From a virus: 64,000 nt of DNA. A program made the position numbers and the translations under genes. Positions 36,434 to 63,788 of the stretch are shown here, piece by piece; position 1 is the first letter of the stretch; each line of letters opens with the position of its first letter. The notes beneath the pieces were generated by a model, which searched no databases, had not been told where the DNA came from, and worked only from the letters and a program-made list of their open reading frames with translations. Where the stretch lies: the IMG/VR virus record IMGVR_UViG_3300045988_071280; one strand, written 5' to 3'.

Positions 36434-39400
36434 CGTATTTTTCTTATATTTTCATATAAGCCAGACTATATCATTAACTTATATTCTATTACCGTCTATA
36501 AGTTACCTCCCGTTTCCATATTTAACAATATGTACTCTACTCATTTATTCTCTAATATATTTCTTATTAGATATATTTTCGATAGTCGTTGAACTTTGAA
36601 TAAATATTTAAATAATATTTAAGCCTTAGCTGCTGATTAACATGTAGTAATTAATATGGACAATACTATTTAGCCTTCCAGCAATTAGAGAGGTTTAATT
36701 TTTCTACATATCACTATGTAGCGGCGCTAGAGGAGTAGTTAACGCCAATTACATCAGTTTTTATCATATCACAGCCTTTGAATGTCCAAGATTCAATAGC
36801 TGGTTTTCCGTTAGCTAAATCCGGAGTAAGATCTAGAATAAATCCAAATGCTTGATCAGGATATTCTATATTTAAAGCCTTATCCGGCATAAAGGTTATC
36901 GTATTACCTTGATATTCATAGCTAACAAAAGTATTACCTACTTTAATACCATCAACCGTTTCACCTACTTTCTTCTTAACACCAGAAGATTTACTATACA
37001 TCAAAGTAGCAGTAGGAGTCCATTTTCCAATTTCATCCATTAAGTTATCACCAACCTGATTCCAAAGTAAAGAGTTACAGATTAATACATAATCATTGCC
37101 AGTTAAATTCTTTGCCTTAGAGGTTAAGAAACTTAATGCTTCTTTGAAGTGTGAAGTAAGTAATTGATCGAAAGAGATTAAGTATGCGTATCTTTCTATT
37201 TGAGGAATAATTCCATCGCCTATATACACTATTTATACTTTATATTACTATAAAGATTAGACTATATCTTTAACTTATCATTAATTTAAATACTTAAATA
37301 AATATCCTTTACAAGTTTTTCCTCTTCCTTTTAAAACTCTTCCACAACCTGGATATTGCTTACTACATTCTCCTACAGTTTTAAAAGTTTCTAATAATTC
37401 TCCATCTAAAGAATATCTTCCGACCATTCTTCCGGTATGAAGATACTTAGAAGATTCTTTATTTGGCATGGCTGGAATTTTTTCTATACTCCATTGATAA
37501 CCTTGCCAAGTTCTATTTAATTTAATTGCACTACTAATACCCTTTTTTCCTAAAGCTCTTTCAGCTTCTGCAAAAGAACTATATTCATTTAAATATTCCC
37601 CAGAAAGGGAATATTGATATACAGGAGTATTTTTTAATTGCTTACATTTAGCTCTAGAATAATTACCTTCTAATTCGTAAGATACATATTTATTATTTAT
37701 CAAATATCCAGCTTTTATTGCTCTAATAACATTTCCTGTTGCAGAATTTAATTCTTTAGCAGCATCAGTTATAGATTGATAAAATTTTTCATAATTTCCA
37801 TCTTTATCATATTGATAAACAGGAATTTTATGTTGATCAATAATAAAGTCTTTTGGATTTACTGATTTAAATTTTTCAGTTGTCCATAGATATTTAGCAC
37901 AAGGATGTTTTGTCATTATAGCAATACTTAATGTTGTATAATATCTATCTACAGCTCTTGAAGCATCTGCAATAGATTTATATTCATTTATATATTCTCC
38001 TTCTAAAGAATATTGATATACAGCTTTAGCATTTACTCCTCTATCTCCCCCATTTCCTCCTAAAGCAGTGTTATACACATCCTTTCTTTTTAAAAATTCT
38101 TCATTAACAATAATTGATTCTAAATAATAAGCATCTTCTTCATTATCAAAAACTTGGATAGTTTTTCTAATAAAGGCTTTTACTCCATATTTATTAACAG
38201 CAGCTTGAAATACTGTTTTACTGAATTTATATGTAGAAGGTTGATTTATAACAACCCCACATCCTAAATACCCATCAAAAATATCTGGATTTTCGGTTTG
38301 ATGTACTCCCACATATATTTTTTTATTAATTGTGTTAGTAGTTAGATATACTATATATTTCATATTTAAATTTTTATAAGTTAATTCCCATTTCCAGATA
38401 AAATCTGTACTCCTTGCGGATAGTCGTTGAACGTTCCTTTTGCGTTACTCAAAGAGCCTACTTATCAAAAGGCTTCGCTGCTGATTGTCTTTAAGTAGCA
38501 GATTAAAGATATTCCAGCAATTAAAGAATTTAATTTATCATACTGTTTCCAGTATGCGACCCATGTTTAACATAGACGTTTGTTAAAAGTCCCAGGTCTC
38601 TGCGTTTGCGGGTCCACGATTGTAGCTTTCCCGTTGGCATCCACGTTACTGCGTGCCCAAAGATCGTGTTTAGCTTTAACTTCTAAGAAATTCTCAATAA
38701 GAGTCTTTTCCATTGAAGTCATAGTAAACAATTTTTCACTTCCTTTAGTTTCCGTATCACTAATTTTCAAGAATACATCTTCATTAGCTAAATAAGCTTG
38801 AGATGCATCAATATCATTTCTATGTAAAGTCAAGTAATTACGATGAACCTCCATATTAGATTGATATTTTGTAGCGTTAGTACTTTATATCACTATAAAG
38901 ATTAGACTATATCTTAATCTTATTATATAAGATCTTCTCTGCTTCGGAATTAAATATTCCTACTCCATATTGGATAGTCGTTGAACGTTCTATATTGTAT
39001 TTAAATACTCATATAGCTTCGCTGCTGATTGTCTTTAAATAAGATGTTCCAGCAATTCAGAGAATGTTTCAATATTTATTACTAAATAAAGGGGCCTACA
39101 ATTTAACCCAAAGTCGTGATAATCAAACGGATGAGCATTTGATAAGAAGTGAGTAGTCATACCCGGCTGACATGCGGAAGTATCCAAATATGACTGATAA
39201 TCATTATCAATCAATCGAACAGTATATTCATAGAATTTATTACTCCTCCAAATTGGACGAGAAGTAACATAACACTGTTGATGTGATTTATCTATTACAA
39301 AAATATCATGTTTATCATAGTATTTTTCCTTAAACAGCATCTTAATTTCTGTCCCTCCAATTCCATCACCTTCGGGAACAGCGTAAAAAGGAATACGTTT

Positions 39401-40907
39401 AATGAACTATTCTATTTAAAGAATTTAGACTATATCATTTACTTATTTATGATATTTAAAGATATAATCCTTATAATATTTATCACCCATCTGAATATTT
39501 TTTAATTTACTAGATGGGATATTGTATTTTTCTCTTACATCTTTTATACTATCTAAAGTCTCTATATAATTTCCAAATGTATCATATATATCAATCGTTA
39601 TTCCTTTAGAATAATATTTATCCGGAATATTTATTACTTCTGTGGTTGATATATAATAATCCTTATACCATCCATTATTATATAATATCACATTCTTAAT
39701 TTTATTCCAAGAATGGAGCTTTATAACCTTCATCACCATCTTACCCTTAAATTGTCCTATATAAACTCCATCTTTATTATATACATGATATATTAAATTC
39801 TTATAATTTGCTCTAGTTTTTGGAATAAATTCATCAACCAATTTATTAGATATATAATACTTATCTAATACCAAAGATTGATTTTTAATAGCTTTATTTA
39901 TATCTAAATCTCCAAGATATTTAATACATTCATCCTTATCTAAGAACTCATTTAATAATTTCCCTTTTTTAGTATATAAATAAATAGTATTATTTAATTT
40001 ATTTAAAGAATATTTAATAACATCTATCTCCGGTTCTAATGACCAATAGGAATTAAGAAATTTAGATTTATTACTTATCGCGAATTGAAATTTTTTAGGA
40101 GATTCTCCATAAAAATCATATGCTTCTAAGGAATAATTCCATTTCTTCTCTAATTCTCCAGTTGTATTAAATTGATATAAAGGAGATATGTTATTTACAC
40201 TAGAACAATAATTATACGTATGATCGGAATTTAAAAAAGTATCATTAACTAATTCTAATTCCTTTTCATATGCCTCTTCTGGAGTATTAAATATATATAA
40301 TATAGTCCTCTCAAAAGCCTTCGTCCCATATTTTTTAACAGCATATTGGAACGGAGTTTTTGGATACATAAAAGTACTTGGTTGATTTATATAAACTCCA
40401 GATCCTAAATACCCATCAAAAATATCCGGATTTTCGGTTTGATGTATTCCGATATAAATTTTATTTAATTCTCCAACTTTAGATTTTAAATTTTTAGTAA
40501 GATATACAATATATTTCATAAGTAATTCAGTTTTTCAATCTTATTTATAAGATTTACAGGTTTCCCTTAGTCGTTGAACACTACTTTCATCAAAGTCATG
40601 CTGCTGATTGTCTCTAGTAGCAGTAAAGATTCCCAGCAATTTAAAGAATTTATTGTGAACCTCATTGATTCACATCCACGTCCCACTCAATAGCAAAAGC
40701 ATCAATACTCTTACGTCCGGGCTTAGGAATATCTTGATAAACCATATTTTCAATTCTCTCAGTTAAAGCTGATACAGTATGTCCGGGACATAAAGATGCA
40801 GCTAAACCTACTCTATGAGTAATTCGTCCCAAGAATTGGGAGAAATCATGAAAAGTTCTTGAGCCATTCATATTGGCTCGATTTGAAATGTATTCTGCTA
40901 CAAACAT
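36298..40907 (-). CDS. major capsid protein-like gene, split into 5 exons by 4 group I introns (joined CDS 1452 nt, 483 aa)
   Basis: Colinear ORF fragments are separated by spacers carrying group I P/Q/R/S cores. The exon sum 240+301+288+487+136 = 1452 nt gives one open frame. The capsid identity is inferred from size, from the position after portal and an acidic scaffold-like gene, and from the strong terminator; I did not confirm it from motifs. Confidence 0.6.
36434..36741 (-). mobile_element. group I intron 4 (ORF-less, 308 nt)
   Basis: P 36678-36686, Q 36629-36638, R 36583-36594, S 36464-36472 (plus-strand coordinates). P1 is GGCGT|TAAC...GCGCC with a U-G pair. P2 hairpin is CTACATA-GTGA-TATGTAG and P9 hairpin is CTTATAT-GAAA-ATATAAG. 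The intron ends ...ATACG. Confidence 0.75.
36742..37228 (-). CDS. capsid gene exon 4
   Basis: Corresponds to track ORF 36714-37229 minus its intron-encoded tail (NYSSSAAT*). The split codon GT|T joins it to exon 5. Confidence 0.7.
37229..38586 (-). mobile_element. group I intron 3 carrying a GIY-YIG homing endonuclease ORF
   Basis: P 38514-38522, Q 38477-38486, R 38421-38432, S 37260-37268. The HEG lies between R and S (P8 position). P2-like hairpin is CATACTG-GAAA-CAGTATG and P9 is CTTTATA-GTAA-TATAAAG. The intron ends AAATAG. The 5' junction is uncertain by about 3 nt. Confidence 0.7.
37281..38363 (-). CDS. intron-encoded GIY-YIG homing endonuclease with four NUMOD1/IENR1-like repeats
   Basis: KYIVYLTTNTINKKIYVGVHQT is the GIY...YIG motif. 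Four repeats of the type VYQYSLEGEYINEYKSIADASRA follow. The ORF lies inside the intron core. Confidence 0.85.
   Translation of the reverse strand: MKYIVYLTTNTINKKIYVGVHQTENPDIFDGYLGCGVVINQPSTYKFSKTVFQAAVNKYGVKAFIRKTIQVFDNEEDAYYLESIIVNEEFLKRKDVYNTALGGNGGDRGVNAKAVYQYSLEGEYINEYKSIADASRAVDRYYTTLSIAIMTKHPCAKYLWTTEKFKSVNPKDFIIDQHKIPVYQYDKDGNYEKFYQSITDAAKELNSATGNVIRAIKAGYLINNKYVSYELEGNYSRAKCKQLKNTPVYQYSLSGEYLNEYSSFAEAERALGKKGISSAIKLNRTWQGYQWSIEKIPAMPNKESSKYLHTGRMVGRYSLDGELLETFKTVGECSKQYPGCGRVLKGRGKTCKGYLFKYLN
38587..38874 (-). CDS. capsid gene exon 3
   Basis: Track ORF 38567-38854 extended upstream to the 3' splice site (ACG|CT) and trimmed at ...RPGT. Phase is 2+285+1. Confidence 0.65.
38875..39105 (-). 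mobile_element. group I intron 2 (ORF-less, 231 nt)
   Basis: P 39049-39057, Q 39021-39030, R 38975-38986, S 38905-38913. P1 is GGGT|TAAATTGTAG-GCCC with a U-G pair. P9 is CTTTATA-GTGA-TATAAAG. The intron ends CTAACG. The split codon T|CT keeps the frame. Confidence 0.75.
39106..39406 (-). CDS. capsid gene exon 2
   Basis: Track ORF 39035-39340 extended upstream to FIKRIPFYAVPEGDGIGGTEIK and trimmed at ...YHDFG. 301 nt, phase 0 in and phase 1 out. Confidence 0.65.
39407..40667 (-). mobile_element. group I intron 1 carrying a GIY-YIG homing endonuclease ORF
   Basis: P 40633-40641, Q 40600-40609, R 40568-40579, S 39428-39436. P1 is GTGAAT|C-AATGA-GGTTCAC with a U-G pair. The HEG lies between R and S. 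The 3' end is placed after G39407 because it is the only in-frame G after the TAG at 39407-39409. Confidence 0.7.
39443..40519 (-). CDS. intron-encoded GIY-YIG homing endonuclease with NUMOD1/IENR1-like repeats
   Basis: KYIVYLTKN...KIYIGIHQTENPDIFDGYLG. Four degenerate repeats follow (LYQFNTTGELEKKW..., IYLYTKKGKLLNEF...). The stop is 6 nt from the S element. Confidence 0.85.
   Translation of the reverse strand: MKYIVYLTKNLKSKVGELNKIYIGIHQTENPDIFDGYLGSGVYINQPSTFMYPKTPFQYAVKKYGTKAFERTILYIFNTPEEAYEKELELVNDTFLNSDHTYNYCSSVNNISPLYQFNTTGELEKKWNYSLEAYDFYGESPKKFQFAISNKSKFLNSYWSLEPEIDVIKYSLNKLNNTIYLYTKKGKLLNEFLDKDECIKYLGDLDINKAIKNQSLVLDKYYISNKLVDEFIPKTRANYKNLIYHVYNKDGVYIGQFKGKMVMKVIKLHSWNKIKNVILYNNGWYKDYYISTTEVINIPDKYYSKGITIDIYDTFGNYIETLDSIKDVREKYNIPSSKLKNIQMGDKYYKDYIFKYHK
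40668..40907 (-). CDS. capsid gene exon 1
   Basis: Track ORF 40662-40907 trimmed by two codons (Q, stop), which belong to the intron P1 loop. Confidence 0.65.
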
Positions 40908-43367: not shown

Positions 43368-44138
43368 TTAAGCGTCTATTGTTAAATATTCTATAACCAT
43401 TCTAGGATTATTATAATCTATATTAACTTGTATACCTCCAATTTGTAGTCCAGTAGAATCTAATGGAATAGCATTAACATTTCCAAAATCCCATAAAAGT
43501 ACTCTTATACTATTTGATTCATTGATATGATATAACTTATTATTTATATATTCTATTGTGAAAATATTAGCTTCTCCCATATTTCCTCCATATATTATAG
43601 GATGATTAATTGGATCAGCATTTCCATTAACGTCTTGTACTACTATTTTAATTGTTGAGTTAGTAGTATCTGTACTTCTTAATATACTTAAATACTTTTT
43701 ATCATTAGTATCTGATACTAAAAGAGTTAATAAACAATTATAAGAATTTTCAGAACTTCCAATAGCAGTAATAGTATATCTAAAAGAAACTCTCCAATTA
43801 TTTTTTCGATTCTCGAATAGATTAGCTATTAATATAGATGAATAATCTTTCATAAACATAGCTCCATAACTATTATGCTGAATTAATCCTAATTCTTGAA
43901 TAAATGAAGTAACAGAAGATGTAGTTGTATTAGATACTCCATCATATAAAAAAATCTGAGATAATATTTTAATTATATCATTATCTGCTGGAAAATCATA
44001 TAAACTATAACTACTAAGTGGAGTAGGATCGGCTCCAGAAAGAATAGCTCCATCTTTATGTATAAAATTCATATTTGTACTACTAGGAGATCCTAATCTA
44101 TTAGCAGCATCTTTAAGAGTTAAAAAATCCTTACTCAT
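43368..44138 (-). CDS. fibre-tip/receptor-binding candidate, 256 aa, with shared N-terminal motif
   Basis: The N-terminal 55 aa (MSKDFLTLKDAANRLG...ADPTPLSSYSLYDF) are homologous to the N-terminus of the 351-aa ORF at 45591-46646. Confidence 0.55.
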   Translation of the reverse strand: MSKDFLTLKDAANRLGSPSSTNMNFIHKDGAILSGADPTPLSSYSLYDFPADNDIIKILSQIFLYDGVSNTTTSSVTSFIQELGLIQHNSYGAMFMKDYSSILIANLFENRKNNWRVSFRYTITAIGSSENSYNCLLTLLVSDTNDKKYLSILRSTDTTNSTIKIVVQDVNGNADPINHPIIYGGNMGEANIFTIEYINNKLYHINESNSIRVLLWDFGNVNAIPLDSTGLQIGGIQVNIDYNNPRMVIEYLTIDA

Positions 44139-44142
44139 ATTT

Positions 44143-44457
44143 CTAAGTTTTAGTTCCGAATACTATCCAATCTATAGTTTTTGGATCTTTTCCTCCACTA
44201 TACAATTCTATATATGTCTTTGTTACACCCATAACATTACAAGAATATCCAGCTTCGTTATTTCCCCGAAATGAACATACAGCAGTTCTTGGTATATAAT
44301 CTCCTTGTAACGATACTCTAGTTTCAGTATGTCCCTCACATAAAGTACTTCCCATCTCGAATACTAAAGGACCTAATGTCATAACTACATGACCTGGTCT
44401 AGTTATATCATGTTGAGTCTCTAATATATTATCTAATTCCGTTATAAACTCCGCCAT
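44143..44457 (-). CDS. small lectin-like paralogue 3 (104 aa)
   Basis: Starts MAEFITELD. Shares ...NNEAGY...GGKDPKT..W.VFG with the two neighbouring paralogues. Confidence 0.6.
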   Translation of the reverse strand: MAEFITELDNILETQHDITRPGHVVMTLGPLVFEMGSTLCEGHTETRVSLQGDYIPRTAVCSFRGNNEAGYSCNVMGVTKTYIELYSGGKDPKTIDWIVFGTKT

Positions 44458-44774
44458 AATTGATTATTTACTGATAATCCTATTATTAAAAATGTTACAG
44501 TTTTATCATCTTTCCCTCCAAGAGAAAATGTTACTCCTGTAGTATTTAAACTAGATATACTTATAGCATATCCTTGTTCATCATTATTTTTTAATGAAGC
44601 CATTCCGGTAATTATCCCACTAAATCCTTTTAATGGTACAGAAACAACATCATACCCAGGACAAGTAGTAGTTCCATAAGCGATTCGTAGTCCTTTATAA
44701 TTTATATATGTAACAGGATCTACCATTTCCACGGAATAGTCCTCTAAATTATCTTCTGTTAAAAATTCAGCCAT
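44442..44774 (-). CDS. small lectin-like paralogue 2 (110 aa)
   Basis: Starts MAEFLTEDN. Contains ...NNDEQGY...GGKDDKT..FLIIG. Overlaps the next paralogue by 16 nt. Confidence 0.6.
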   Translation of the reverse strand: MAEFLTEDNLEDYSVEMVDPVTYINYKGLRIAYGTTTCPGYDVVSVPLKGFSGIITGMASLKNNDEQGYAISISSLNTTGVTFSLGGKDDKTVTFLIIGLSVNNQLWRSL

Positions 44775-44776
44775 AT

Positions 44777-45070
44777 TTAATCACTTTCTCCTATTATTAA
44801 ATAATAAAATTCTTTAGGATCTTTCCCTCCGAGTATGAAAGTAGCCGAGGTATTAGTATAAGAGGATAAATTTACTGTATAACCTGCTTCATTATTATTT
44901 TTTAAACAACAGAATACTCCATATACTGATTTAAATCCGGAATAAGTAATTGTTATACCTCTACTAGTTATAGAAGAATATCCTCCAACCATTCTGAGTC
45001 CTAAACCTTCAATCCCTCCAGATCCAGTAGAATCTAAAGCTCTATCGTCTACAGTTAGATATTCTGCCAT
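44777..45070 (-). CDS. small lectin-like paralogue 1 (97 aa)
   Basis: Starts MAEYLTVDD. Contains ...NNNEAGY...GGKDPKE.YYLIIG. Confidence 0.6.
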   Translation of the reverse strand: MAEYLTVDDRALDSTGSGGIEGLGLRMVGGYSSITSRGITITYSGFKSVYGVFCCLKNNNEAGYTVNLSSYTNTSATFILGGKDPKEFYYLIIGESD

Positions 45071-45071
45071 A

Positions 45072-45212
45072 TTATATTATTTTAGCTCTTTGTTTTAATC
45101 GATGTATATCATCTTCTAAAGATTGGATTTTGTCTTTTATTATATTTAATTCTAAGGAATCTTTTTTGATAAAGATTCTATGTAAAAATGTTTTAATTTT
45201 ATTTAATAACAT
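45072..45212 (-). CDS. small helical protein, 46 aa (not in the ORF track)
   Basis: MLLNKIKTFLHRIFIKKDSLELNIIKDKIQSLEDDIHRLKQRAKII*. The stop is 1 nt before the next ATG (45070). Confidence 0.35.
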   Translation of the reverse strand: MLLNKIKTFLHRIFIKKDSLELNIIKDKIQSLEDDIHRLKQRAKII

Positions 45213-45222
45213 ATTAATTAAA

Positions 45223-45560
45223 TTAATATCCTATAGCTAACCAAAAAAATTCACTTCTGGTATTTACTGGAGCAGTTCCTACTAATTCCACTGTTAACGA
45301 GGAATTTGTGAAGGATTTAATAGTTAAAACATCTCCTTTAGACCAATAACCATAATAGTTATTAGGAGTGAGTTGCACCATACAGCATTTAGTAGGAAAT
45401 GTTTTTGGATATGATACTGTTGCAGTCATACTTCCAGTATTAAAGTTACTAAGTCCTGACTGTATCAATATCCCCCCCCCTGTAAGGTATCTGCTTTTGT
45501 AGGAGCTGTTTTAGAGAATAAGGTATTTAAATTATCTTTGGTTATAAATTCCTTTGCCAT
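45223..45560 (-). CDS. H-type-lectin-like paralogue 4, interrupted by a G9 tract (in frame only with G10 or a -1 shift)
   Basis: The ATG at 45560 gives MAKEFITKDNLNTLFSKTAPTKADTLQGGGY* (stop 45465-45467). The body (track ORF 45223-45468) lies in the -1 frame and ends ...SEFFWLAIGY. With one extra G the two parts form a 112-aa protein the same size as its paralogues. Confidence 0.65.
45472..45480 (-). repeat. homopolymeric G9 tract (C9 on the plus strand) inside a coding region
   Basis: Counted directly as tat-ccccccccc-tgt. Very unexpected in such AT-rich DNA. Confidence 0.9.
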
Positions 45561-45590
45561 TTATTAATATTTTATTTAATTATTATATAT

Positions 45591-46646
45591 TTATGTTAAT
45601 TTTTTATATGTATTTCCACTTGTATTTAATTCTGTCCACCATATATCTCCTTTATAATTAATTAGTTCTGGCTGTATTCCAACATTTCCAAAATTCTTTA
45701 CTATAGTACCGCTATATATCTCACATAAACAAGGATATTTAAGAGTAGCAGATTGAGATACATTTATACACTTATTGCCTCCGTATATTAAGCATCTAAC
45801 AAAAAATTCAGTCATCGGAGTGTATGATAAAGAAAGACTTGATGTTTGAGAAGAATGATAATCCCATGTACTACTAGTCCTTATATAGCTATTATTAGTC
45901 TCTGCGTTAGCAAATGTAGCATAATTACCATTAGATTCTTTAGTAAGAACTTGAGAATACATAGTAGGACTAACATCCGCTCCTTTAGTATAAGAATATG
46001 AATCATTAGTCTCATTTACATATAACCTAGCTACACATCTATACGTTCCTCCAACATCAAAATACGCATAATGATAAGTGCCAACCTTCTCTACAAAAGA
46101 AAAAGTTCTCGGATATTTAAAATTACTACCAGTATAAGCAGCTATAGTAGTAAGAGTATTATTAGATGTATTTAATTTATATATTCTAAATTGCGTATTA
46201 GCATTTGAAGAAGATCCACTACAACAAAATAGATAATTACCTGATAAAGCCGAAGTAGCTATATTATACCAATATCCAGTAGAACCACTTAGAGATATAG
46301 ATGTGGTAACCATTGTACCATTAACCACAACTCCGAAAGTGATATTTTTAAAATCAGAAGCTGCATAAACAAATGGAATTCTTTCATCATCAGGATCTGC
46401 TACAACACCTATACGACAATAGACACTTCTGGAAGAAAGAAAATCGTTTAGAACCTGCATATTATCTACTTTCCTATTTACATCGTCATACGCAACGAAA
46501 TCAGTATTAGCATAGCTAGTAAGTAAATCAGGATCCGCCTTTAATAAAAGAATATTTTGCTTTGATATATATTCAGTACCTCCAGTTACTGGTATACCTT
46601 GTAATTTCTCTATTGCCTGGTCAATTGTTATAAATTCCTTACTCAT
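45591..46646 (-). CDS. fibre-tip/receptor-binding candidate, 351 aa, with shared N-terminal motif
   Basis: Starts MSKEFITIDQAIEKLQG...ADPDLLTSYANTDF, homologous to the N-terminus of the 256-aa ORF. The remainder is S/T/N/Y-rich and beta-type. Confidence 0.6.
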   Translation of the reverse strand: MSKEFITIDQAIEKLQGIPVTGGTEYISKQNILLLKADPDLLTSYANTDFVAYDDVNRKVDNMQVLNDFLSSRSVYCRIGVVADPDDERIPFVYAASDFKNITFGVVVNGTMVTTSISLSGSTGYWYNIATSALSGNYLFCCSGSSSNANTQFRIYKLNTSNNTLTTIAAYTGSNFKYPRTFSFVEKVGTYHYAYFDVGGTYRCVARLYVNETNDSYSYTKGADVSPTMYSQVLTKESNGNYATFANAETNNSYIRTSSTWDYHSSQTSSLSLSYTPMTEFFVRCLIYGGNKCINVSQSATLKYPCLCEIYSGTIVKNFGNVGIQPELINYKGDIWWTELNTSGNTYKKLT

Positions 46647-46701
46647 AACAATTCCAATAACGAGATTTTATTTTTTAATAATCTATTTAGATTCTTTTCA
46701 T

Positions 46702-46710
46702 CCCCCCCCC
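46702..46710 (-). repeat. homopolymeric G9 tract (C9 on the plus strand), intergenic
   Basis: Counted directly as cat-ccccccccc-tat. Lies 34 nt after the fibre stop (46744) and 56 nt upstream of the ATG at 46646. Confidence 0.9.
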
Positions 46711-46743
46711 TATTTATAGAGGATTTTAAAGATATTTTATATA

Positions 46744-49119
46744 TCATATTTTCCATACTTTCTTTAAATTACTTATTTCTTGTTCTAAATATTTTATTTT
46801 TTCCTCAAATTCTTTCTGAGATTTAATTCTTAAATTATATTCCTCTTTTAAAGCCTCTTGAAGAAGGATTGTATATCTCTCATATGAAAATGTTAAAATA
46901 GAATTATTTATTTCTCTTACAAGCTCTGGATAATATTTATTCCAGTATTGAGCTGAGGTTCCTATACATAAATCATTCTCGTCCATCCAATTATATTTAA
47001 ATCCGGGAGAATTTAGTACTAGAGGTAATATATTAGATAAATTCTCTATATTATGTTTATATCTAATATCAGATACAGAAGTTGTCCCAGCTCCGTTTGT
47101 ATGAACAGTATGTTTTGTGAAAGTGATTTCATCAAGACTGTTAATTTTAGCCATTATTGATTCAGGTGTTTCTCCTGAAGAATTCATTAATGTATCTACA
47201 TCGGCTCTTAAACTAAGAATATCTTGTTGTAATGGAACTAAATCAGATAGATAAGATATTTCATTATCTCCCCATGTAATCCTTCTATTAAAAGTGCTAG
47301 GTATATTAAATACATTATTAGTTCCCTCCCCATTTGGAATCCATACTCGAAGATCGGTATCCATACCTAATATTGACCAGTTTATTTCTTTTGTAGAAGA
47401 TGCAGATAATTTAAGCATTCCATTTATCTCACAATCTCCTTTTAATCTTATGTACCTACAATATACTTTTTCAGAATAGACTCCGTATATATCAGAACTT
47501 AATAAAGTATCAAAATATATAGGATCTCTAATACCTTCTAAACATCCCAATCTTAATCTCGGAGATAAGGGTGCGACTTCATCATTTATACCTAAATAAG
47601 ATTTATCTAAACATTCTCCAGTTTCGGGGTTTGTTTCTCTAATACTATGTAAATACAAAGAATCCCAATTTCTAAAATATAAAACATCTCCAACTTCCGG
47701 AAGTTTTTCTAACTCTCTCTTCCTTTCCTCATCAGTAGTTTCATCTAAATACTCTTCTAAATCCTTATCTAAAACATTTTTATCAATAGTAGCAACTATA
47801 TTACATCCAGAAATTGTAAAAGTATCCTCATCATAAATCCATTCTAATTCTTCAATCTTAATCCTACCTTTAGATATTATTTTAGTAGTAGGAATTAAAG
47901 TGCTTACATCAATCTCTTCCTCAGAATCTTCTGGTATTTCTACATTATATCCATAAGAATACTTCTCAAAATATAAATAATCTCCTATTTTTATATTATA
48001 AATCCCATTTATAGATATCTCGTATTTAATAGGAATAACTTCCTCTGTTTCTCCTCCAGATTCTTCTTCATTAGGAACTATTTCAGATATACTAGATACA
48101 ATTCCTTGTGGTTCAAAGAAATAATTAGTATTTAATCCTTTAGTAATAAAATCCTTCTCTTTAGATGAACCATCCCCAAACGGGCCTTTAGCAGAATTTC
48201 TCACTATTAAATTATCTACTTCTAAAGTCCATTCGGAATTTATATTCGCTAATCTATATCCAGCCATTCCTTCTATGAAATAATCTGATATTATCCCAGA
48301 ATTAAGAACAGCTTCATCTTTTACATACATATTCCCATCTACTTCAAAATTATAGTTATAAGTTGGAGGATATCCTATAGATATATAATTCCCATTTATA
48401 TATGTAATACCTTCTTTAGAATTAAATTTAATACCAGAAGTATTAGTATCTAAAGTTACTCCACTATTATTAACTATTATATCTAAATAATCATTCTGAT
48501 TTTTTATCTGCATCCCATTTGATCCTATTACATTAAAATCTCTAGGTCCATGAAGATTATTTTCTAAATTAATAGTTACTTTATCCTTAACTATTCCTCC
48601 GGAATTAAGACTTAAATATAATTCTACTAAAGTCCCATTATCATTATAATAATGAACTTTATCATCTGAATTAAAATAAACAAAATCAATAGGTAAAATT
48701 GCAGTATTATCTTGATTATTAATAATAACTTTTAAATTTCTTTGAGCAGTTCTAATCTGTTCTAGAGTAAGATCTTGATTATAATTAATAGCTAAATAAT
48801 CCTCAGAATTCTCTACATCATCTCTTTTAGATAGTACTGGATATAATATTCCATTTATTTGAAAATAAATAGCATCTTCCGATTCCACAAAATACCATCC
48901 ATCCGCAGTTCCTATATCATTTTTATTCTGAACAATATTTATACTCTTATCATTACCATCAGTCTTAGATATCTTTCCGTTAGAAATAAGATCCAAGAAA
49001 GCATTTCCGAATCTAACTTTTACATTACCTTTTCCATTAAGAATTATATCAGTATCAGCAGATCCAACCATTAAATATGGCTTTCCTAGAATCTTTTCTA
49101 CTTTAATAAGTTCTCCCAT
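46744..49119 (-). CDS. tail fibre (791 aa) with C-terminal S74-type intramolecular chaperone domain
   Basis: The C-terminus SDIRYKHNIENL...FKYNWMDENDLCIGTSAQYW...FSYERYTILLQEALKE matches the auto-cleaving chaperone (endosialidase CIMCD) pattern S-D-x-R-x-K...G..AQ. Confidence 0.75.
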   Translation of the reverse strand: MGELIKVEKILGKPYLMVGSADTDIILNGKGNVKVRFGNAFLDLISNGKISKTDGNDKSINIVQNKNDIGTADGWYFVESEDAIYFQINGILYPVLSKRDDVENSEDYLAINYNQDLTLEQIRTAQRNLKVIINNQDNTAILPIDFVYFNSDDKVHYYNDNGTLVELYLSLNSGGIVKDKVTINLENNLHGPRDFNVIGSNGMQIKNQNDYLDIIVNNSGVTLDTNTSGIKFNSKEGITYINGNYISIGYPPTYNYNFEVDGNMYVKDEAVLNSGIISDYFIEGMAGYRLANINSEWTLEVDNLIVRNSAKGPFGDGSSKEKDFITKGLNTNYFFEPQGIVSSISEIVPNEEESGGETEEVIPIKYEISINGIYNIKIGDYLYFEKYSYGYNVEIPEDSEEEIDVSTLIPTTKIISKGRIKIEELEWIYDEDTFTISGCNIVATIDKNVLDKDLEEYLDETTDEERKRELEKLPEVGDVLYFRNWDSLYLHSIRETNPETGECLDKSYLGINDEVAPLSPRLRLGCLEGIRDPIYFDTLLSSDIYGVYSEKVYCRYIRLKGDCEINGMLKLSASSTKEINWSILGMDTDLRVWIPNGEGTNNVFNIPSTFNRRITWGDNEISYLSDLVPLQQDILSLRADVDTLMNSSGETPESIMAKINSLDEITFTKHTVHTNGAGTTSVSDIRYKHNIENLSNILPLVLNSPGFKYNWMDENDLCIGTSAQYWNKYYPELVREINNSILTFSYERYTILLQEALKEEYNLRIKSQKEFEEKIKYLEQEISNLKKVWKI

Positions 49120-52036: not shown

Positions 52037-52297
52037 TTATCGTAATTCTTTATCGTAATTCTTTAGATATTCACATTTATTTACAGCTCTTATTATAGTA
52101 GAATGATGTTTATTATAAATTTTAGATAAACGATAGAAGGAAATACCGTATTTAACGTGTAAGAAATAGAATAAGATACTTCTAGCATCTGTATGAGATC
52201 TAAGCTTTCTATTATCTCTTAATTCTTCTATCGTGATATTAAATATATTAGATATTATACTTTCTAATTTGTTTATTATTTCTTCCATAGATATCAT
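52037..52297 (-). CDS. DnaA domain IV-like helix-turn-helix protein, 86 aa
   Basis: ITIEELRDNRKLRSHTDARSILFYFLHVKYGISFYRLSKIYNKHHSTIIRAVNKCEYL aligns by eye with the DnaA C-terminal DNA-binding domain (R..R....AR.IAMYL......S...IG..FG.RDHSTV.HA..KIE). Confidence 0.6.
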   Translation of the reverse strand: MISMEEIINKLESIISNIFNITIEELRDNRKLRSHTDARSILFYFLHVKYGISFYRLSKIYNKHHSTIIRAVNKCEYLKNYDKELR

Positions 52298-59637: not shown

Positions 59638-60437
59638 TACTTTCTACAATTACAAGAACTAAATCCAGTAGAGTATTTAAGGTAATCATTATTACAAAAT
59701 CCTCCACAAACCTGAATCTCTTCTATAATTCTCTCGGCTTCATAATAACTACATTTATCTATTAATCTATGGATTAATTCTAAAGCTATAAATACCATAT
59801 TCCTATCTCTAAATACTTGAGAAATATTATTATCATTTTTTATATTACATCTAGTATATAATTTATTATAATAGATATATTTTAATTTATTCTCGTAACA
59901 ATATTCTAAATTCCCTAAAAGAAATGTCTCTTCCTCAATCCCTATTATATTAGAATTAGACTGATTATTATATAAATCCATTATAGATATCTTCTTTTCA
60001 GTATAACTTCCGGATATAATAGTTATTTCATAAATCTCTACTTCTCCATTTGAAAGTTCTTTCGCGGAATAGAATATTTCTCCTTCCATATTTAAACTAG
60101 ATGGAGATACTCCATGAACCCATTCGTAATTAGGTAACGCTAAATGATCTATTATATGCCATCCGTCTATTTTAGTAGAATAGTTTAATTTATAATCAGT
60201 ATATTCCTGATCTGAATGACATACATAATAAAAATCTGATACTTTAGGATCATCTATAGTATTTAGAGTAATTAAATCAATAAATACAATATCTTTTGTT
60301 CTTAAATAATTAGCGGATATCTGAGATACTTCTGGATAGATACTACTAGTACTTATACCAGTAGTATCCTTTAATGTAAATCCAGATATTCCGTATTCAG
60401 TTAATGAAATACTTAAATTTAATGAAATATTTTTCAT
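59637..60437 (-). CDS. hypothetical protein, 266 aa, Cys-rich C-terminus
   Basis: ORF overlapping the portal stop by 4 nt and the next ATG by 1 nt (TAATG). Confidence 0.65.
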   Translation of the reverse strand: MKNISLNLSISLTEYGISGFTLKDTTGISTSSIYPEVSQISANYLRTKDIVFIDLITLNTIDDPKVSDFYYVCHSDQEYTDYKLNYSTKIDGWHIIDHLALPNYEWVHGVSPSSLNMEGEIFYSAKELSNGEVEIYEITIISGSYTEKKISIMDLYNNQSNSNIIGIEEETFLLGNLEYCYENKLKYIYYNKLYTRCNIKNDNNISQVFRDRNMVFIALELIHRLIDKCSYYEAERIIEEIQVCGGFCNNDYLKYSTGFSSCNCRK

Positions 60438-61465
60438 TTTCCAAAATTTACTTCGTTATTTCTAGGATTATTATCAAATAATTGTGCCCATTCAATATTA
60501 GCTTTCTTTTCTTCGATCTTATTCCTCTCTTTATCATTCTCATCTTTAGATTTAGCAGTAAACCATTTAATAGAGGAATCTTGTTCTTTTTGTTTTAGAT
60601 TTTCTACTTCTTTAATAGATTTTTGCAATTCCTCTTGAAGTTGCTGTATCTGTTGTTGAGCTTCTTTAAGAGCTTGATCATATTGCTGTATTTGTTGTTG
60701 AGCTTGTTGTATTTGATTATTCTCCTCTTTTTGACGTTTAATTGCATCTAATGTTATTTGTTTATATTCTGTGATACTCTTACATCCAATAGCTTGTACT
60801 AATACATCAGCTGTTAATTGTCCTGATTTAATTAACTCAAGATTATATGCTTTTATAGTTTCTAAGTCTTGTAGAGCGGATTGAGTATCAGCAATATTTA
60901 TATCAAAGTCTGTTACTGTATAATGTTCTGGAAGTGCTGTGAAAATAGCTTTTTGTTTCTCTCCAAGAATTATAGTTCCTTGAAATCCATCTTTATATAC
61001 TACTTTAGCTATATTTAAACTATCTAAGAATAATTCTCTTAAAGCTAATGCCATGTTAGAGAAGTATATTTTTGTGACAATTAGTGATTGATTAATTCCG
61101 GTTCTAACATTAGTAACAGCATCTCTGGTTTCAACTCCTCCAATAGCTTCTCTAAATGCTCCTGTTATATTAGATGCAAGTTGCTCTATTTTTTCTATAG
61201 CTAGATCTAGAGCTTGCATGGATTGGTAGGATAAACTCATATCATATGTATTAAATACAGCATTTGGCATAGATTGTCCAGCCTCACTTTGGGAAGTATC
61301 TAATGCTGCGAATCCTTGTTTTACATACGCCATGAATTTAAGTAATCTGTTTGTTTCATCTTCCTCGTCTAAGAATGTGGGGATTTTAGAGAAATCTACT
61401 GCAATACCTTTTGTTCCACTTACTGCAATGGCATTATTTCGAAGGAAAAATAGTATATTATACAT
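60434..61465 (-). CDS. portal gene exon 2
   Basis: An in-frame TAA at 61469-61471 forces the 3' splice site to lie after G61466 (or G61463). The exon then begins (M)YNILFFLRNNAIAVSG. Confidence 0.65.
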   Translation of the reverse strand: MYNILFFLRNNAIAVSGTKGIAVDFSKIPTFLDEEDETNRLLKFMAYVKQGFAALDTSQSEAGQSMPNAVFNTYDMSLSYQSMQALDLAIEKIEQLASNITGAFREAIGGVETRDAVTNVRTGINQSLIVTKIYFSNMALALRELFLDSLNIAKVVYKDGFQGTIILGEKQKAIFTALPEHYTVTDFDINIADTQSALQDLETIKAYNLELIKSGQLTADVLVQAIGCKSITEYKQITLDAIKRQKEENNQIQQAQQQIQQYDQALKEAQQQIQQLQEELQKSIKEVENLKQKEQDSSIKWFTAKSKDENDKERNKIEEKKANIEWAQLFDNNPRNNEVNFGK

Positions 61466-63788
61466 CATTTATGTTCAATGTGGTTCGTTACTCCACATCC
61501 GGGAATTTACCCAGCTATATGTTTCCATATAGATCAGACTATATCATACATAATTGATCTAGTATAAGGTCTAAAAGATTTTTAGAAAAACATTCAGTTG
61601 ATGTTTCATGTTCCCAATGTTTAGGCAAATATAAATTATTTTTAATTAGTCTTTTTAATTTAGTTTCTAATGTTTTACAATCTATAGGATTTTCAAAAGA
61701 AATAGTTTTAATTACTTCTATTTCATAGCCAAGATTTTTATACTCTTTAAATCTTCTAATTTGTCCGTTTTCTAAAGTATAAGATATTCCCAATTTATAA
61801 AAACTTTCTTCTTCATTATATAATCGTATAAGATAAAATGTATCACTACATTTCCAGTTTTTACATTTTGGACATCCCCTACCCATAAATATATAATCAT
61901 TATCTATAGATACTTCTCCATGTTCTGGACATATTAAAATAGATTTACCTCCGTGTCTACTAGTTTCAGTAATTTTAAAATCATACTTGTCTCCATAAAT
62001 AAATTTAAGTTGATTGTAAAAATACTGTTTTCTATCAACCGCTGCCTCAATCGTAGGCATAAATCCTTTAGATATCAAATTTCCAGGAGTTACAGAAACT
62101 AAGCCAAATTGTGTTTCAAACAGCATTTTTGAGTTCATTCCACTATATTCAGATGCAGGCTTTATATTATTATATATATGCTCTTGTTTTTCTTTCAATA
62201 GATTCATGAAATATTCAGTTTTGTTTATGGCTGCCTTTATTCCAGGAGTATAAAGTAAAACTTGTTTTGCTGTATTAAACGACATTACTCCATATTTGTC
62301 CTTTACTAAAATTGGTTTAGAAAGTCCTTTAAACCTACTTACCACTTCGATATCTTTATTATATAAAGACTCTACTTCCTTTTTAAATTGTTCTTCTGTG
62401 TACTTCATTCTTTTTCAAATTACTTATTAAATTATGTTTCCGTGCTTCGAACTCACTTGAGTCCTATAATTAGTCGTTGAACCTTCCTTTAAAATATTTA
62501 AAGGCTTGGCTGCTGATTAGCATAGATAAATTATCTTTAGCTTCCCAGCAATTCTCGGAATTTACCCAGGACCTGTATATTAATCCTGTAAATCTGCTGT
62601 AGCTAATACTAAACTAAACGGGATATTTTGTCTCGTTGTCATAAATAACCCATTAACAGATAATGTACATTCCTTAGGATTATCCATAGATCTAACTACA
62701 TTTAAATCTACATCCCTAACAATATAAATATCACTAGCAATTTTAACTACAGAGTATCTATGCATTACACCATCTTTTCCTGTCTCTATATATTCTACCT
62801 CATATACAGTAATTAATCTATTATTATATCCATACATTCCAGTATTCCCATCCCAAACAGGAGTTACCTCTAGTCCCCCTAATATTCCGGTAGCAAATTC
62901 CGAATCCTCTGTAGTAGCAGCATTTATTGGTCCGGTAGATCTTATTATATACTTCTGATTATCAGTATAATATGCCTTCTCTAATTCATCTCTTAACTTA
63001 GTTTTATCAGCTTCTGTTAATTCTGAATTATATTTAGATAGGATCTGATCTACTGTCATGTAATATCTACAAACAGCTCTAGGAGATTTATTTAAATAAT
63101 AACTATTAGGATTTTTCTCCACAAAAGTATTAATAGGATTTAATCCTTCTATATCCACATTATTCCCACTTCTAGAAGGTTGTGTTTTAAAATAAAGTGT
63201 TCCGGAGATTAATAAATCCGTCATTAATAATCTAGCTTTTATATCTAAATCAATACTTTTAGATTGAGATAAATATGTTATAATATTCTGTGCTGCTATT
63301 TCATATTCAGAAATAAAATTTTTATCTATATCTTCTTTTAATAACTGTAGAGACTTTTCAGTTAGAGGATCTTTTGTTATAGGAGTATTCTGATCTCCGA
63401 ATTTAGAGAGAATAGTATTATATAAATTACTCATATATAATTCCCTAACTCCATCTAATACTTTAAGCTGTCTCTCTCTATTTATTAAAGATAATGTCTT
63501 TTGATCTTTACATGTAATTTGCATATTTAATGGAGCATCTAGAAACTTCCCAACTAAATAATCTATGTGCTTTTTTATAAGTGGTATAAATTGTATTTGT
63601 GTCGGAGTTCCTATTCCATAATTTTCTTCGAAATGCTTATATTGATCTAAATCCATCTTCCCGTGATAGTAGTTATAAGCTTTTCTTATTGCTACTTTAT
63701 CATATACGAGATCAGAAATAGCTTGGTTGGCCTTCTGAATTTGATAGTCTTTTGATCCTCGTTTGTACTCGACGCTCATCCAAATCAA
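60434..63788 (-). CDS. portal-like protein gene, split by one group I intron (about 745 aa when joined)
   Basis: Two colinear ORFs (402 and 344 aa) are separated by a 1.1-kb spacer with a group I core. The size, the AIRKAYNYYHG-type N-terminal region and the Q-rich coiled-coil C-terminus fit a portal. The identity is inferred, not confirmed. Confidence 0.6.
61466..62582 (-). mobile_element. group I intron carrying a homing-endonuclease-like ORF
   Basis: P 62544-62553, Q 62509-62518, R 62471-62482, S 61537-61545. P1 is CAGGAT|TAATATACAG-GTCCTG with a U-G pair, extendable by ATTTA/TAAAT. P9 is CTATATG-GAAA-CATATAG, followed by an extra hairpin ATGTGG/CCACAT. The intron starts with TAA, which is the track ORF stop. 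Confidence 0.75.
61539..62408 (-). CDS. intron-encoded putative homing endonuclease: zinc ribbon plus GIY-YIG-superfamily (T5orf172-like) C-terminal domain
   Basis: CPEHG...GCPKC zinc-ribbon-like motif, then TFYLIRLYNEEESFYKLGISYT...RRFKEY...E.KLKRLI...TECF. Located between R and S. The TAG stop lies inside the S element. Confidence 0.55.
   Translation of the reverse strand: MKYTEEQFKKEVESLYNKDIEVVSRFKGLSKPILVKDKYGVMSFNTAKQVLLYTPGIKAAINKTEYFMNLLKEKQEHIYNNIKPASEYSGMNSKMLFETQFGLVSVTPGNLISKGFMPTIEAAVDRKQYFYNQLKFIYGDKYDFKITETSRHGGKSILICPEHGEVSIDNDYIFMGRGCPKCKNWKCSDTFYLIRLYNEEESFYKLGISYTLENGQIRRFKEYKNLGYEIEVIKTISFENPIDCKTLETKLKRLIKNNLYLPKHWEHETSTECFSKNLLDLILDQLCMI
62583..63788 (-). CDS. portal gene exon 1
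   Basis: Track ORF 62580-63788 without its stop codon. The last codons ...ADLQD end at the U of the P1 U-G pair. Confidence 0.65.

Follow-up and report, generated by a model that had tools for sequence, protein, structure and literature searches.

Six adjacent crassvirus genes with a common N-terminal tag: possible interchangeable binding heads behind an S74-ended tail fibre

In the IMG/VR virus record IMGVR_UViG_3300045988_071280, a stretch of 64,000 nucleotides (nt) with 28% G+C that is referred to as the window in its full length, six adjacent genes on the minus strand encode proteins with a common start, a strand-plus-helix tag of the form M-[AS]-(K)-[ED]-F-[IL]-T-x-x-D. These are two larger proteins of 351 and 256 amino acids (aa), three small proteins of 97, 110 and 104 aa and the product of a gene split by a frameshift (Table 1). 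The six N-termini quoted in an earlier note on this DNA were all recovered from the open reading frames (ORFs) or the sequence. With inner spacers no longer than 30 nt and a 16-nt overlap between the 110-aa and 104-aa genes, the six genes are regarded as one tightly packed late operon. As the earlier note had described, it lies directly downstream of the gene for a 791-aa fibre, which ends in a Peptidase_S74 (S74) domain. The cassette is situated between the tail-fibre genes on one side and the lysis and capsid genes on the other, and small membrane-protein-like and lysis-region ORFs adjoin it.

Six-frame translation of the window yields the pattern M[AS]K?[ED][FY][IL]T at six places and nowhere else, and all six coincide with start codons of these genes. 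In 200 base-composition-preserving mononucleotide shuffles it occurred 0.02 times on average and never more than once, a test which is post hoc, as the pattern was written after the six genes had been seen. The a-priori chance that one unrelated N-terminus matches the pattern of the larger proteins is ~4e-5 by arithmetic from residue frequencies. The tag codons vary synonymously between the genes (GCA/GCT/GCG, GAA/GAG, ACA/ACC/ACT/ACG, ATA/TTA/CTA) and the upstream regions are unrelated, which rules out a DNA or ribosome-binding signal as cause of the motif; judged from these codons, conservation acts at the protein level. The likeness reaches ~15 residues, with EF[IL]T followed by x(x)D[NDQ] and a helix-like stretch. 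Among the small paralogues, which are 24-44% identical overall, the tag is almost invariant, and it is common to two families, the small paralogues and the proteins with a 57-aa N-terminal module described below, between which no other similarity was detectable. Furthermore, the frameshift gene agrees with the 351-aa gene at 17 of 21 nt of the 5' end, suggesting a recent exchange between their N-termini.

Table 1 Features of the cassette and of the preceding fibre gene (positions in the window).
Feature	Position	Strand	Description
791-aa fibre gene	46744-49119	-	Peptidase_S74 at residues 683-735 (about 46915-47073)
Spacer between 791-aa and 351-aa genes	46647-46743	-	97 nt; second G9 at 46702-46710; stop codons; decayed relic of an older N-module
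351-aa gene	45591-46646	-	N-module at residues 1 to ~57 (46476-46646), MSKEFITIDQ; beta-rich body
Frameshift-split gene	45223-45560	-	Anchor MAKEFITKDN and Gp53-like_C knob; 31-aa ORF 45465-45560, 81-aa ORF 45223-45468
G9 homopolymer	45472-45480	-	Anchor/knob junction of the frameshift-split gene
46-aa ORF without motif	45072-45212	-	Kept in relatives; near-identical copy in L007
97-aa gene	44777-45070	-	MAEYLTVDD; small anchor-plus-knob paralogue
110-aa gene	44442-44774	-	MAEFLTEDN; small anchor-plus-knob paralogue; 16-nt overlap with next gene
104-aa gene	44143-44457	-	MAEFITELD; small anchor-plus-knob paralogue
256-aa gene	43368-44138	-	N-module at residues 1-57 (43968-44138), MSKDFLTLKD; predicted LamG/ConA-like lectin body

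The window was assigned to a crassvirus because a 1628-aa ORF (22224-27110) matches the crassvirus muzzle family crAss_MUZ (PF25731, E 2.6e-26) and a 344-aa ORF resembles the C-terminal part of a P22-like portal (P22_portal, E 2.9e-6). Judged by sequence comparison it is a very divergent one, since the virion proteins of crAss001, compared by phmmer with all ORFs of the window, gave nothing at E ≤ 1; gene-by-gene mapping was thereby impossible. Ten neighbouring proteins gave no PHROG match. The annotated phage collection contained a single relative, Dulem virus 41 (L001; other contigs compared carry corresponding numbers), whose cassette genes are labelled hypothetical.

For the two larger proteins the earlier note had proposed homology limited to the N-terminus, and this was borne out: residues 1-56 align (39% identity, E 5e-8) and the remainder does not. 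In both of them the tag opens a 57-aa module ending in DDDI[IV]K. The N-terminal profile search which the earlier note had called for was performed exhaustively with a profile of these two N-termini against 1.84 billion protein cluster representatives and detected the module on many divergent bodies in relatives. There were 55 matching representatives (E < 1e-3), about 50 of which carry the module at residues 1-57 of proteins of 180-500 aa, with the consensus MSKxFLTxxxAxxKLG...FITK..L...G.D...L.KY...DFV.DDDI.K. Within this family, which has diverged to ~30-40% identity, the first seven residues are among the best-conserved positions. The bodies behind the module are mutually unrelated (Laminin_G_3-like, BACON, DUF285 and others), and the module itself gave no match in Pfam or among PDB sequences. 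On this sequence evidence it represents a widespread undescribed family with freely swapped bodies. Exchange affects both sides of the junction: protein P0147 has its first 57 residues as in the 256-aa protein and an unrelated body, and in close relatives a 351-type body stands behind another N-terminus, MAEEFATIAQTNNILGSSINGGGGGSEF.... An HTH_17/excisionase-like helix-turn-helix, to which the sequence FLTxxEAxxKLG bears some resemblance, was dropped because 24 members gave no Pfam match at E ≤ 1 and the two predicted helices are split by a variable 12-residue loop. Module members were also seen outside phage-fibre contexts (L027 225-893, L028 722-1390 and L053 300-1151). One of these genes has a G8 tract and adjoins an IS1595-like transposase gene and genes of a conjugative element (DUF3945, DUF4099, Toprim); another, with a BACON body, adjoins pullulanase and Peptidase_C11 genes.

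The AlphaFold2 (AF2) model of the 256-aa protein, with a mean predicted local distance difference test score (pLDDT) of 85.3 and a predicted template modelling (TM) score of 0.82, consists of the small N-module and a beta-sandwich. Foldseek related the sandwich to the lectin-like part of BoNT Hc, legume lectins, CBM66 and the CBM2 of the phage J-1 Dit in the PDB (E ~1e-5), and to LamG-domain phage proteins and tail fibres in BFVD. According to this confident model, the body is a LamG/ConA-like lectin jelly roll. For the 351-aa protein, residues 1-70 were modelled with pLDDT 82-92 and the all-beta body poorly (mean 56); with propeller matches in Foldseek at a TM score of ~0.3 and a weak Kelch_6 match in Pfam, the body is probably beta-propeller-like, the model being weak. 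More than 120 homologues of this protein were found at 77-98% identity, some with other N-termini, and word-index protein searches with either of the larger proteins returned close relatives only. Homologues of the 256-aa gene in L020, L021, L023 (8001-8770) and L007 (7423-8195) are truncated by 1-nt deletions in T7 or A4 runs. The truncation in L007 was reproduced in the independent assembly L008; such homologues reflect either real decay or switching, or homopolymer errors of assembly.

The frameshifted gene of the earlier note proved to be real. Its 31-aa ORF stops just past the G9 tract, and one added G fuses it with the downstream ORF, so that G10 in place of G9 gives a 112-aa product consisting of a 27-aa anchor and a knob. 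This fused product matches Gp53-like_C (PF21882) with E 8.4e-13 and 49.1 bits (cutoff 24.9), residues 29-112 aligning with positions 4-84 of the 84 profile positions across the shift site, and PHROG tail-fibre families match the knob part as well. Intact 112-aa orthologues were found in L007, L008 and L013-L019. Searches of PDB sequences with the fused product and its profile gave chance matches only. The 97-aa, 110-aa, 104-aa and frameshift proteins align with each other and have the motifs NNxEAGY, GGKD and LIIG in common (in a looser form NNxxGY and LIIG/LAIG). By alignment, the first three are mutual paralogues, and hhalign relates them to the frameshift family with E 8.3e-5 and a probability of 61% over 55 columns. 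A word-index protein search with the profile of the small proteins gave no relatives of the three beyond this phage lineage. All four small paralogues consist of the tag followed almost at once by a knob of ~85 aa, which in the frameshift gene matches Gp53-like_C. The 46-aa ORF inside the cassette (MLLNKIKTFLHRIF...) gave no family match in Pfam or PHROG; by eye it may be helical and coiled-coil-like.

The two G9 tracts are the sole runs of G or C longer than five in the window. Both had been associated with genes of the cassette in the earlier note. This applies to one of them, which is intragenic; the other is intergenic and belongs to a decayed remnant. The intragenic tract occupies codons 27-30 of the 112-codon gene, exactly between anchor and knob, and a G tract stands at this junction in every relative examined, with lengths from G5 to G12 and at least eight G at the same position in most related lineages. 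It is in frame (ON) in L007, L008, L013-L019, L041 and L043 and out of frame (OFF) in others, where both wrong frames occur; G9 and G12 of divergent lineages correspond to the same frame. OFF is the commonest state, and the allele of the window is OFF, being one G short. The same OFF length was found in the independent assemblies L002-L004, the ON state recurs in L007 and L008, and two contigs end exactly at the tract, a hint of reversible switching inside a single population. In a large protein collection, the 112-aa product and truncated products of 68, 81 and 82 aa fall into the same 90% clusters; among the cluster members read, the 112-aa forms are present on at least 60 contigs and the shorter forms on several hundred, one exact 68-aa downstream product on 351 contigs.

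Comparison of the knob frame between the window and Dulem virus 41, which are both OFF, yielded a proportion of synonymous differences (pS) of 0.456 and of non-synonymous differences (pN) of 0.058. The ratio pN/pS is ~0.13 for this pair and 0.11-0.37 between OFF alleles, which shows purifying selection on the knob frame even in the OFF state. Taken from the alleles, the G9 of the frameshift gene behaves as a contingency switch, and the description 'possibly switchable' given in the earlier note finds support in one gene, whose tract varies in length and which exists in ON and OFF forms. In the Dulem-type lineage (L001 8243-8249, L002 7174-7180), ATG TTG follows right after the tract and gene callers start an 81-82-aa knob ORF there. 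Comparable tracts stand behind the anchor in further genes of the family: G8-G10 in a 354/364-aa gene of relatives, which is ON or OFF, and G8 in a distant LamG member of the module family. In the GGKD codons of the 110-aa gene, relatives carry G7 (L009) or G11 (L022, with a truncated product). In relatives, a remnant module gene, MSYEFLTRSQAASKLSTSITGGG..., with G8-G9 also follows the long fibre gene and overlaps its stop (L020 76-162, L023 2336-2413).

The second G9 is located 56 nt upstream of the ATG of the 351-aa gene. The spacer around it can be aligned to the 5' coding sequence of a 354-aa gene, which overlaps the fibre stop in L007 and L013, and the tract itself aligns with sequence coding for ...ILGSSINGGGGGSEFVTKIQ in the L007-type gene. 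The aligned sequence corresponds to an older N-module of the type ...NNILGSSINGGGGGSEFVTKIQ, which is interrupted by stops in the window. From these alignments, the second G9 is a relic from the installation of a new N-terminal module. That it serves the 351-aa gene as a promoter or as a phase switch found no support, given the alignment to decayed coding sequence. In L012 (6100-6260), the fibre stop and the relic G9 run directly into the knob. Since this deletion of the 351-aa gene and the anchor lies between the two tracts, G tracts may also act as deletion or recombination points.

The 791-aa fibre matches Peptidase_S74 (PF13884) with E 8.8e-7 and 29.6 bits (cutoff 22), and PHROG tail-fibre families match its C-terminal region as well. 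Its predicted mature C-terminus is ...HTNGAGTTSV, directly before SDIRYK. A 2144-aa fibre of the window likewise ends in this intramolecular-chaperone (self-cleaving) domain, and ~140 C-terminal aa are common to both fibres and to the fibres of other loci. An S74-ended fibre gene precedes the module gene directly or almost directly in 11 of 13 contexts with readable upstream DNA, namely in the window, Dulem virus 41, L002, L007/L013, L011/L023, the L020/L023 remnant, L025/L029 (with a lipoprotein gene between fibre and module genes), L030/31, L032/33, L055 and L056. The stop codon of the fibre and the start codon of the module gene often overlap (ATGA). With its T4_gp19-type tube and tape measure, L029 is a myovirus-like contig. 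Its relative L025 has no proteins detectably in common with the window other than the fibre and the module protein, and the fibre is therefore favoured over the capsid or the tail hub as partner of the module.

Elsewhere in the window, on the minus strand, four ORF fragments (81, 101, 95 and 171 aa) with two ~360-aa ORFs between them were noticed at 36714-40907. One of the two (37281-38363) contains NUMOD1 domains (E 2e-22), and the arrangement suggests that two homing-endonuclease insertions or introns have interrupted a structural gene of the capsid region. The portal gene seems to be split as well (60434-63788, minus strand), with a 402-aa ORF, the 344-aa ORF mentioned above and between them a 289-aa ORF without family match. 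An 86-aa ORF after the 2144-aa fibre (52037-52297, minus strand) has a Bac_DnaA_C helix-turn-helix (E 6.8e-10); it takes the position which the remnant module gene with its G8-G9 tract has in relatives.

Tentatively, we favour the reading that the six genes encode alternative virion-surface binding heads on one N-terminal attachment element; it seems quite possible to us, somewhat short of probable. The tag would then anchor each of the six proteins to the tail fibre, most likely at or near the tip which is exposed by S74 cleavage, in the way that gp38 of T2 and T6 caps the processed gp37. Competing for or sharing the same kind of site, the six proteins would provide several glycan-binding specificities per virion. 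Slippage in the G tract would restrict the knob to a part of the population, the downstream frame being kept by selection. The interchangeable heads of the earlier note thus persist in the build of the proteins, which is as expected (a knob, a lectin, swaps of bodies and N-termini), and lose ground with respect to a branching domain and to covariation of fibre tip and module. A branched-fibre system as proposed there was not recovered, as Pfam detected Peptidase_S74 alone in the 791-aa and 2144-aa fibres and no T4gp10-like domain in these or in the nearby proteins, although the literature used HHpred-level sensitivity for such searches.

Besides this missing branching domain, several observations weigh against attachment of interchangeable heads to the fibre. 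The tip ..HTNGAGTTSV precedes three different module subtypes, so that fibre tip and module do not covary and a lock-and-key pairing of the two was rejected. The only region common to all fibres preceding module genes is the S74 region, which is mostly expected to be cleaved off. In the AF2 monomers of the 351-aa and 256-aa proteins, residues 5-7 bridge within the module, the first strand being part of the module fold, and in the large proteins this strand may thus be no free docking peptide. The 97-aa, 110-aa and 104-aa proteins gave no Pfam match to Gp53-like_C, and for two module genes the surroundings are not those of a fibre, namely conjugative-element and insertion sequence (IS) genes in one case and bacterial genes in the other. 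As regards the switch, some IMG contigs show 1-nt deletions in T7/A4 runs elsewhere, and single ON/OFF calls may err. Most OFF alleles are 'one G short', which would also fit programmed slippage in place of stochastic switching, and the full-length knob protein might additionally or alternatively arise through slippage of the RNA polymerase or the ribosome. A strictly programmed -1 frameshift was not taken as the main reading, since alleles in frame and alleles shifted the other way are both present, but it may act as an additional layer.

Systems with one anchor and several heads are known. Anchor-branch receptor-binding protein (RBP) systems were reported for the Klebsiella phages KP32, KP34, Menlow and PhiK64-1, the coliphages K1-5, K1E and G7C and the Salmonella phage SP6 (PMC6872550, Latka et al. 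2019), where the docking peptides of multi-RBP phages can be as short as seven residues, e.g. MALxxLV (PMC6872550); such systems have been validated experimentally (PMC13352976). In analogy to these, the cassette combines adjacent unrelated binding genes, a short common N-terminal peptide, a primary fibre beside them and frequent exchange of bodies. In contrast, neither a T4gp10-like domain nor an adaptor was found here and the peptide sequence is unrelated; the heads are small knobs, a predicted lectin jelly roll and a possible propeller instead of beta-helical depolymerases, the phage is a crassvirus and one member contains a slippery G tract. In phages of the T2/T6/S16 type, gp37 is processed by proteolysis and capped by the tip adhesin gp38, which is conserved in its N-terminal attachment domain and variable in its C-terminal specificity domain (PMC3157838, Trojet et al. 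2011). The module family has the same polarity, and here too a ~260-aa gene follows right after a distal fibre gene whose product is predicted to lose its C-terminus proteolytically, by S74. The two systems differ in that there is no similarity of sequence or fold (a LamG jelly roll versus a polyglycine sandwich), the lock-and-key pairing of gp37 tip and gp38 is not seen, and up to six proteins would share the site. Gp53-like_C, finally, ends long fibres of ~200-530 aa in the PHROG families matched, whereas in the cassette hardly anything but a 27-aa anchor precedes it.

Homopolymer switches have precedents in phages as well. Hypermutable polyG tracts in Campylobacter phage genes were described by Sorensen et al. 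(2021, Cell Rep 35:109214, according to PMC10877375), and a preprint describes contingency loci in T2/T4 (bioRxiv 10.1101/2025.10.21.683753). As in these loci, a homopolymer in the 5' part of a gene would by slippage create ON and OFF subpopulations. In contrast to them, the tract is found in a very A+T-rich crassvirus lineage, its OFF alleles are mostly of one type, and it lies exactly at the anchor/knob junction, recurring in several genes of one anchor family.

The strongest rival to fibre attachment, and a serious one even if we consider it unlikely, is capsid decoration: the proteins, chiefly those of ~100 aa, could be head fibres whose N-termini sit in hexon pockets and whose knobs and lectins provide weak glycan adhesion. 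In crAss001, gp21 (97 aa, held by residues 1-38) and gp29 (122 aa, residues 1-58) are such hexon-pocket head fibres, and uncharacterised analogues are expected in other crassvirus groups (PMC10172136, Bayfield et al. 2023). The window is itself a crassvirus, the sizes (97-112 aa) and anchors (~30 and ~57 aa) are strikingly similar to those of gp21 and gp29, as is the position of the cassette between tail-fibre and lysis/capsid genes, and many hexon sites would suit six competing proteins better than few fibre tips. The parallel thus comprises the virus order, proteins of ~100-120 aa, anchors within the first 26-58 residues, a small distal domain and the part of the genome. However, each crAss001 protein has its own N-terminus and site, whereas six proteins share one tag here, and a conserved tag is hard to square with capsid proteins diverged beyond recognition. 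Neither sequence nor profile comparison revealed a resemblance to gp21 or gp29 (hhalign probability 0.1% for the small proteins versus gp21). Furthermore, the module gene is tied to S74 fibre genes in very different phages, often with translational coupling, and is also present on the myovirus-like contig, which has no recognisable capsid homology to the window; Pfam describes Gp53-like_C as a C-terminal domain of tail fibres. The tail fibre gp22 of crAss001 docks to the hub by its N-terminus (PMC10172136); homology to this N-terminus, in which MFFTQEDY resembles the tag, was rejected with an hhalign probability of 0.2%, and the gp22 homologue of Dulem virus 41, identified by eye, starts with MTKQDLEQIRRYF and lacks the motif.

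That the motif reflects shared ancestry only, by duplication or shuffling and with a role in the own fold or oligomerisation of each protein instead of a common docking site, appears decidedly unlikely. Four of the proteins are small paralogues and the two large ones share the module, and the near-identical 5' ends, the bridging of residues 5-7 within the module and the lacking covariation with the fibre tip would all agree with this. Ancestry alone, however, does not readily account for seven N-terminal residues standing out in so diverged a module family, for a tag near-invariant across the small paralogues and common to two otherwise dissimilar families, or for the sharp module boundary with free body exchange, which is the usual signature of an attachment domain. 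Very unlikely in our view is a role outside the virion, as fibre chaperones or caps or as lectins acting in the cell on lysis timing, superinfection exclusion or release from debris. Genes right after fibre genes often encode assembly chaperones, the cassette adjoins the membrane-protein-like and lysis-region ORFs, and two module genes are found outside phage-fibre contexts; the fibres, however, already possess the intramolecular S74 chaperone, the bodies comprise folds of the carbohydrate-binding type and a tail-fibre knob, and the same fibre tip is followed by unrelated bodies, unlike what a tip-specific chaperone would require. Tfa chaperones have a variable fibre-binding N-terminal domain and a conserved C-terminal oligomerisation domain (PMC9608196), the reverse of the polarity in the cassette; because of this polarity and the chaperone carried by the fibres themselves, a Tfa-type role is unlikely. 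As extremely unlikely we regard a dead pseudogene or sequencing artefact with functionless G tracts. Homopolymers are prone to sequencing errors, 1-nt T7/A4 deletions do occur in some related contigs, OFF is the prevailing state and the second G9 is truly a non-coding relic. Against this stand the open knob frame with its pN/pS of ~0.13 between OFF alleles differing at 46% of synonymous sites, the exact 68-aa product on 351 contigs, the tract of at least eight G kept in most related lineages of a genome otherwise devoid of G runs longer than five, the agreement of independent assemblies on OFF (L002-L004) and ON (L007, L008), and the G tracts which other family members also carry immediately behind the anchor.

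Common docking peptides, tip adhesins and polyG switches are each already known separately in phages. New are the 57-aa module family, its consistent linkage to S74 fibres across phage types, the presence of one tag on six genes of a single crassvirus operon and the position of G tracts at the junction of anchor and head; in the literature searched, no work linking crassviruses with homopolymer switches in fibre genes was found. Crassviruses are among the most abundant gut phages, and their host recognition and their persistence alongside their hosts are little understood. If alternative heads on one attachment element were confirmed, the cassette would constitute a plug-in system of one anchor with many heads. 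Such a system would account for rapid shuffling of the host range and could serve to predict or engineer specificity. Receptor-binding genes now listed as 'hypothetical' in uncultured phages could then be searched for by means of the 57-aa module, and for annotation the 'frameshifted' gene would have to be taken as no pseudogene. The switch would be the second independent phage-encoded phase variation of a binding protein after the Campylobacter phages, now in a crassvirus lineage. A wider generalisation, conceivable although we consider it doubtful, is that phages with S74-ended fibres, including gut crassviruses, use one universal N-terminal anchor family for a pool of interchangeable glycan-binding heads, with hypermutable G tracts right behind the anchor in several of the genes (the knob gene of the window and, in relatives, the 354/364-aa gene, the 110-aa gene and the gene following the long fibre, as well as a distant LamG member). 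In that case each burst would release virions with stochastic combinations of adhesins, a bet-hedging counterpart on the side of the phage to the phase-variable surface polysaccharides of its Bacteroidales hosts.

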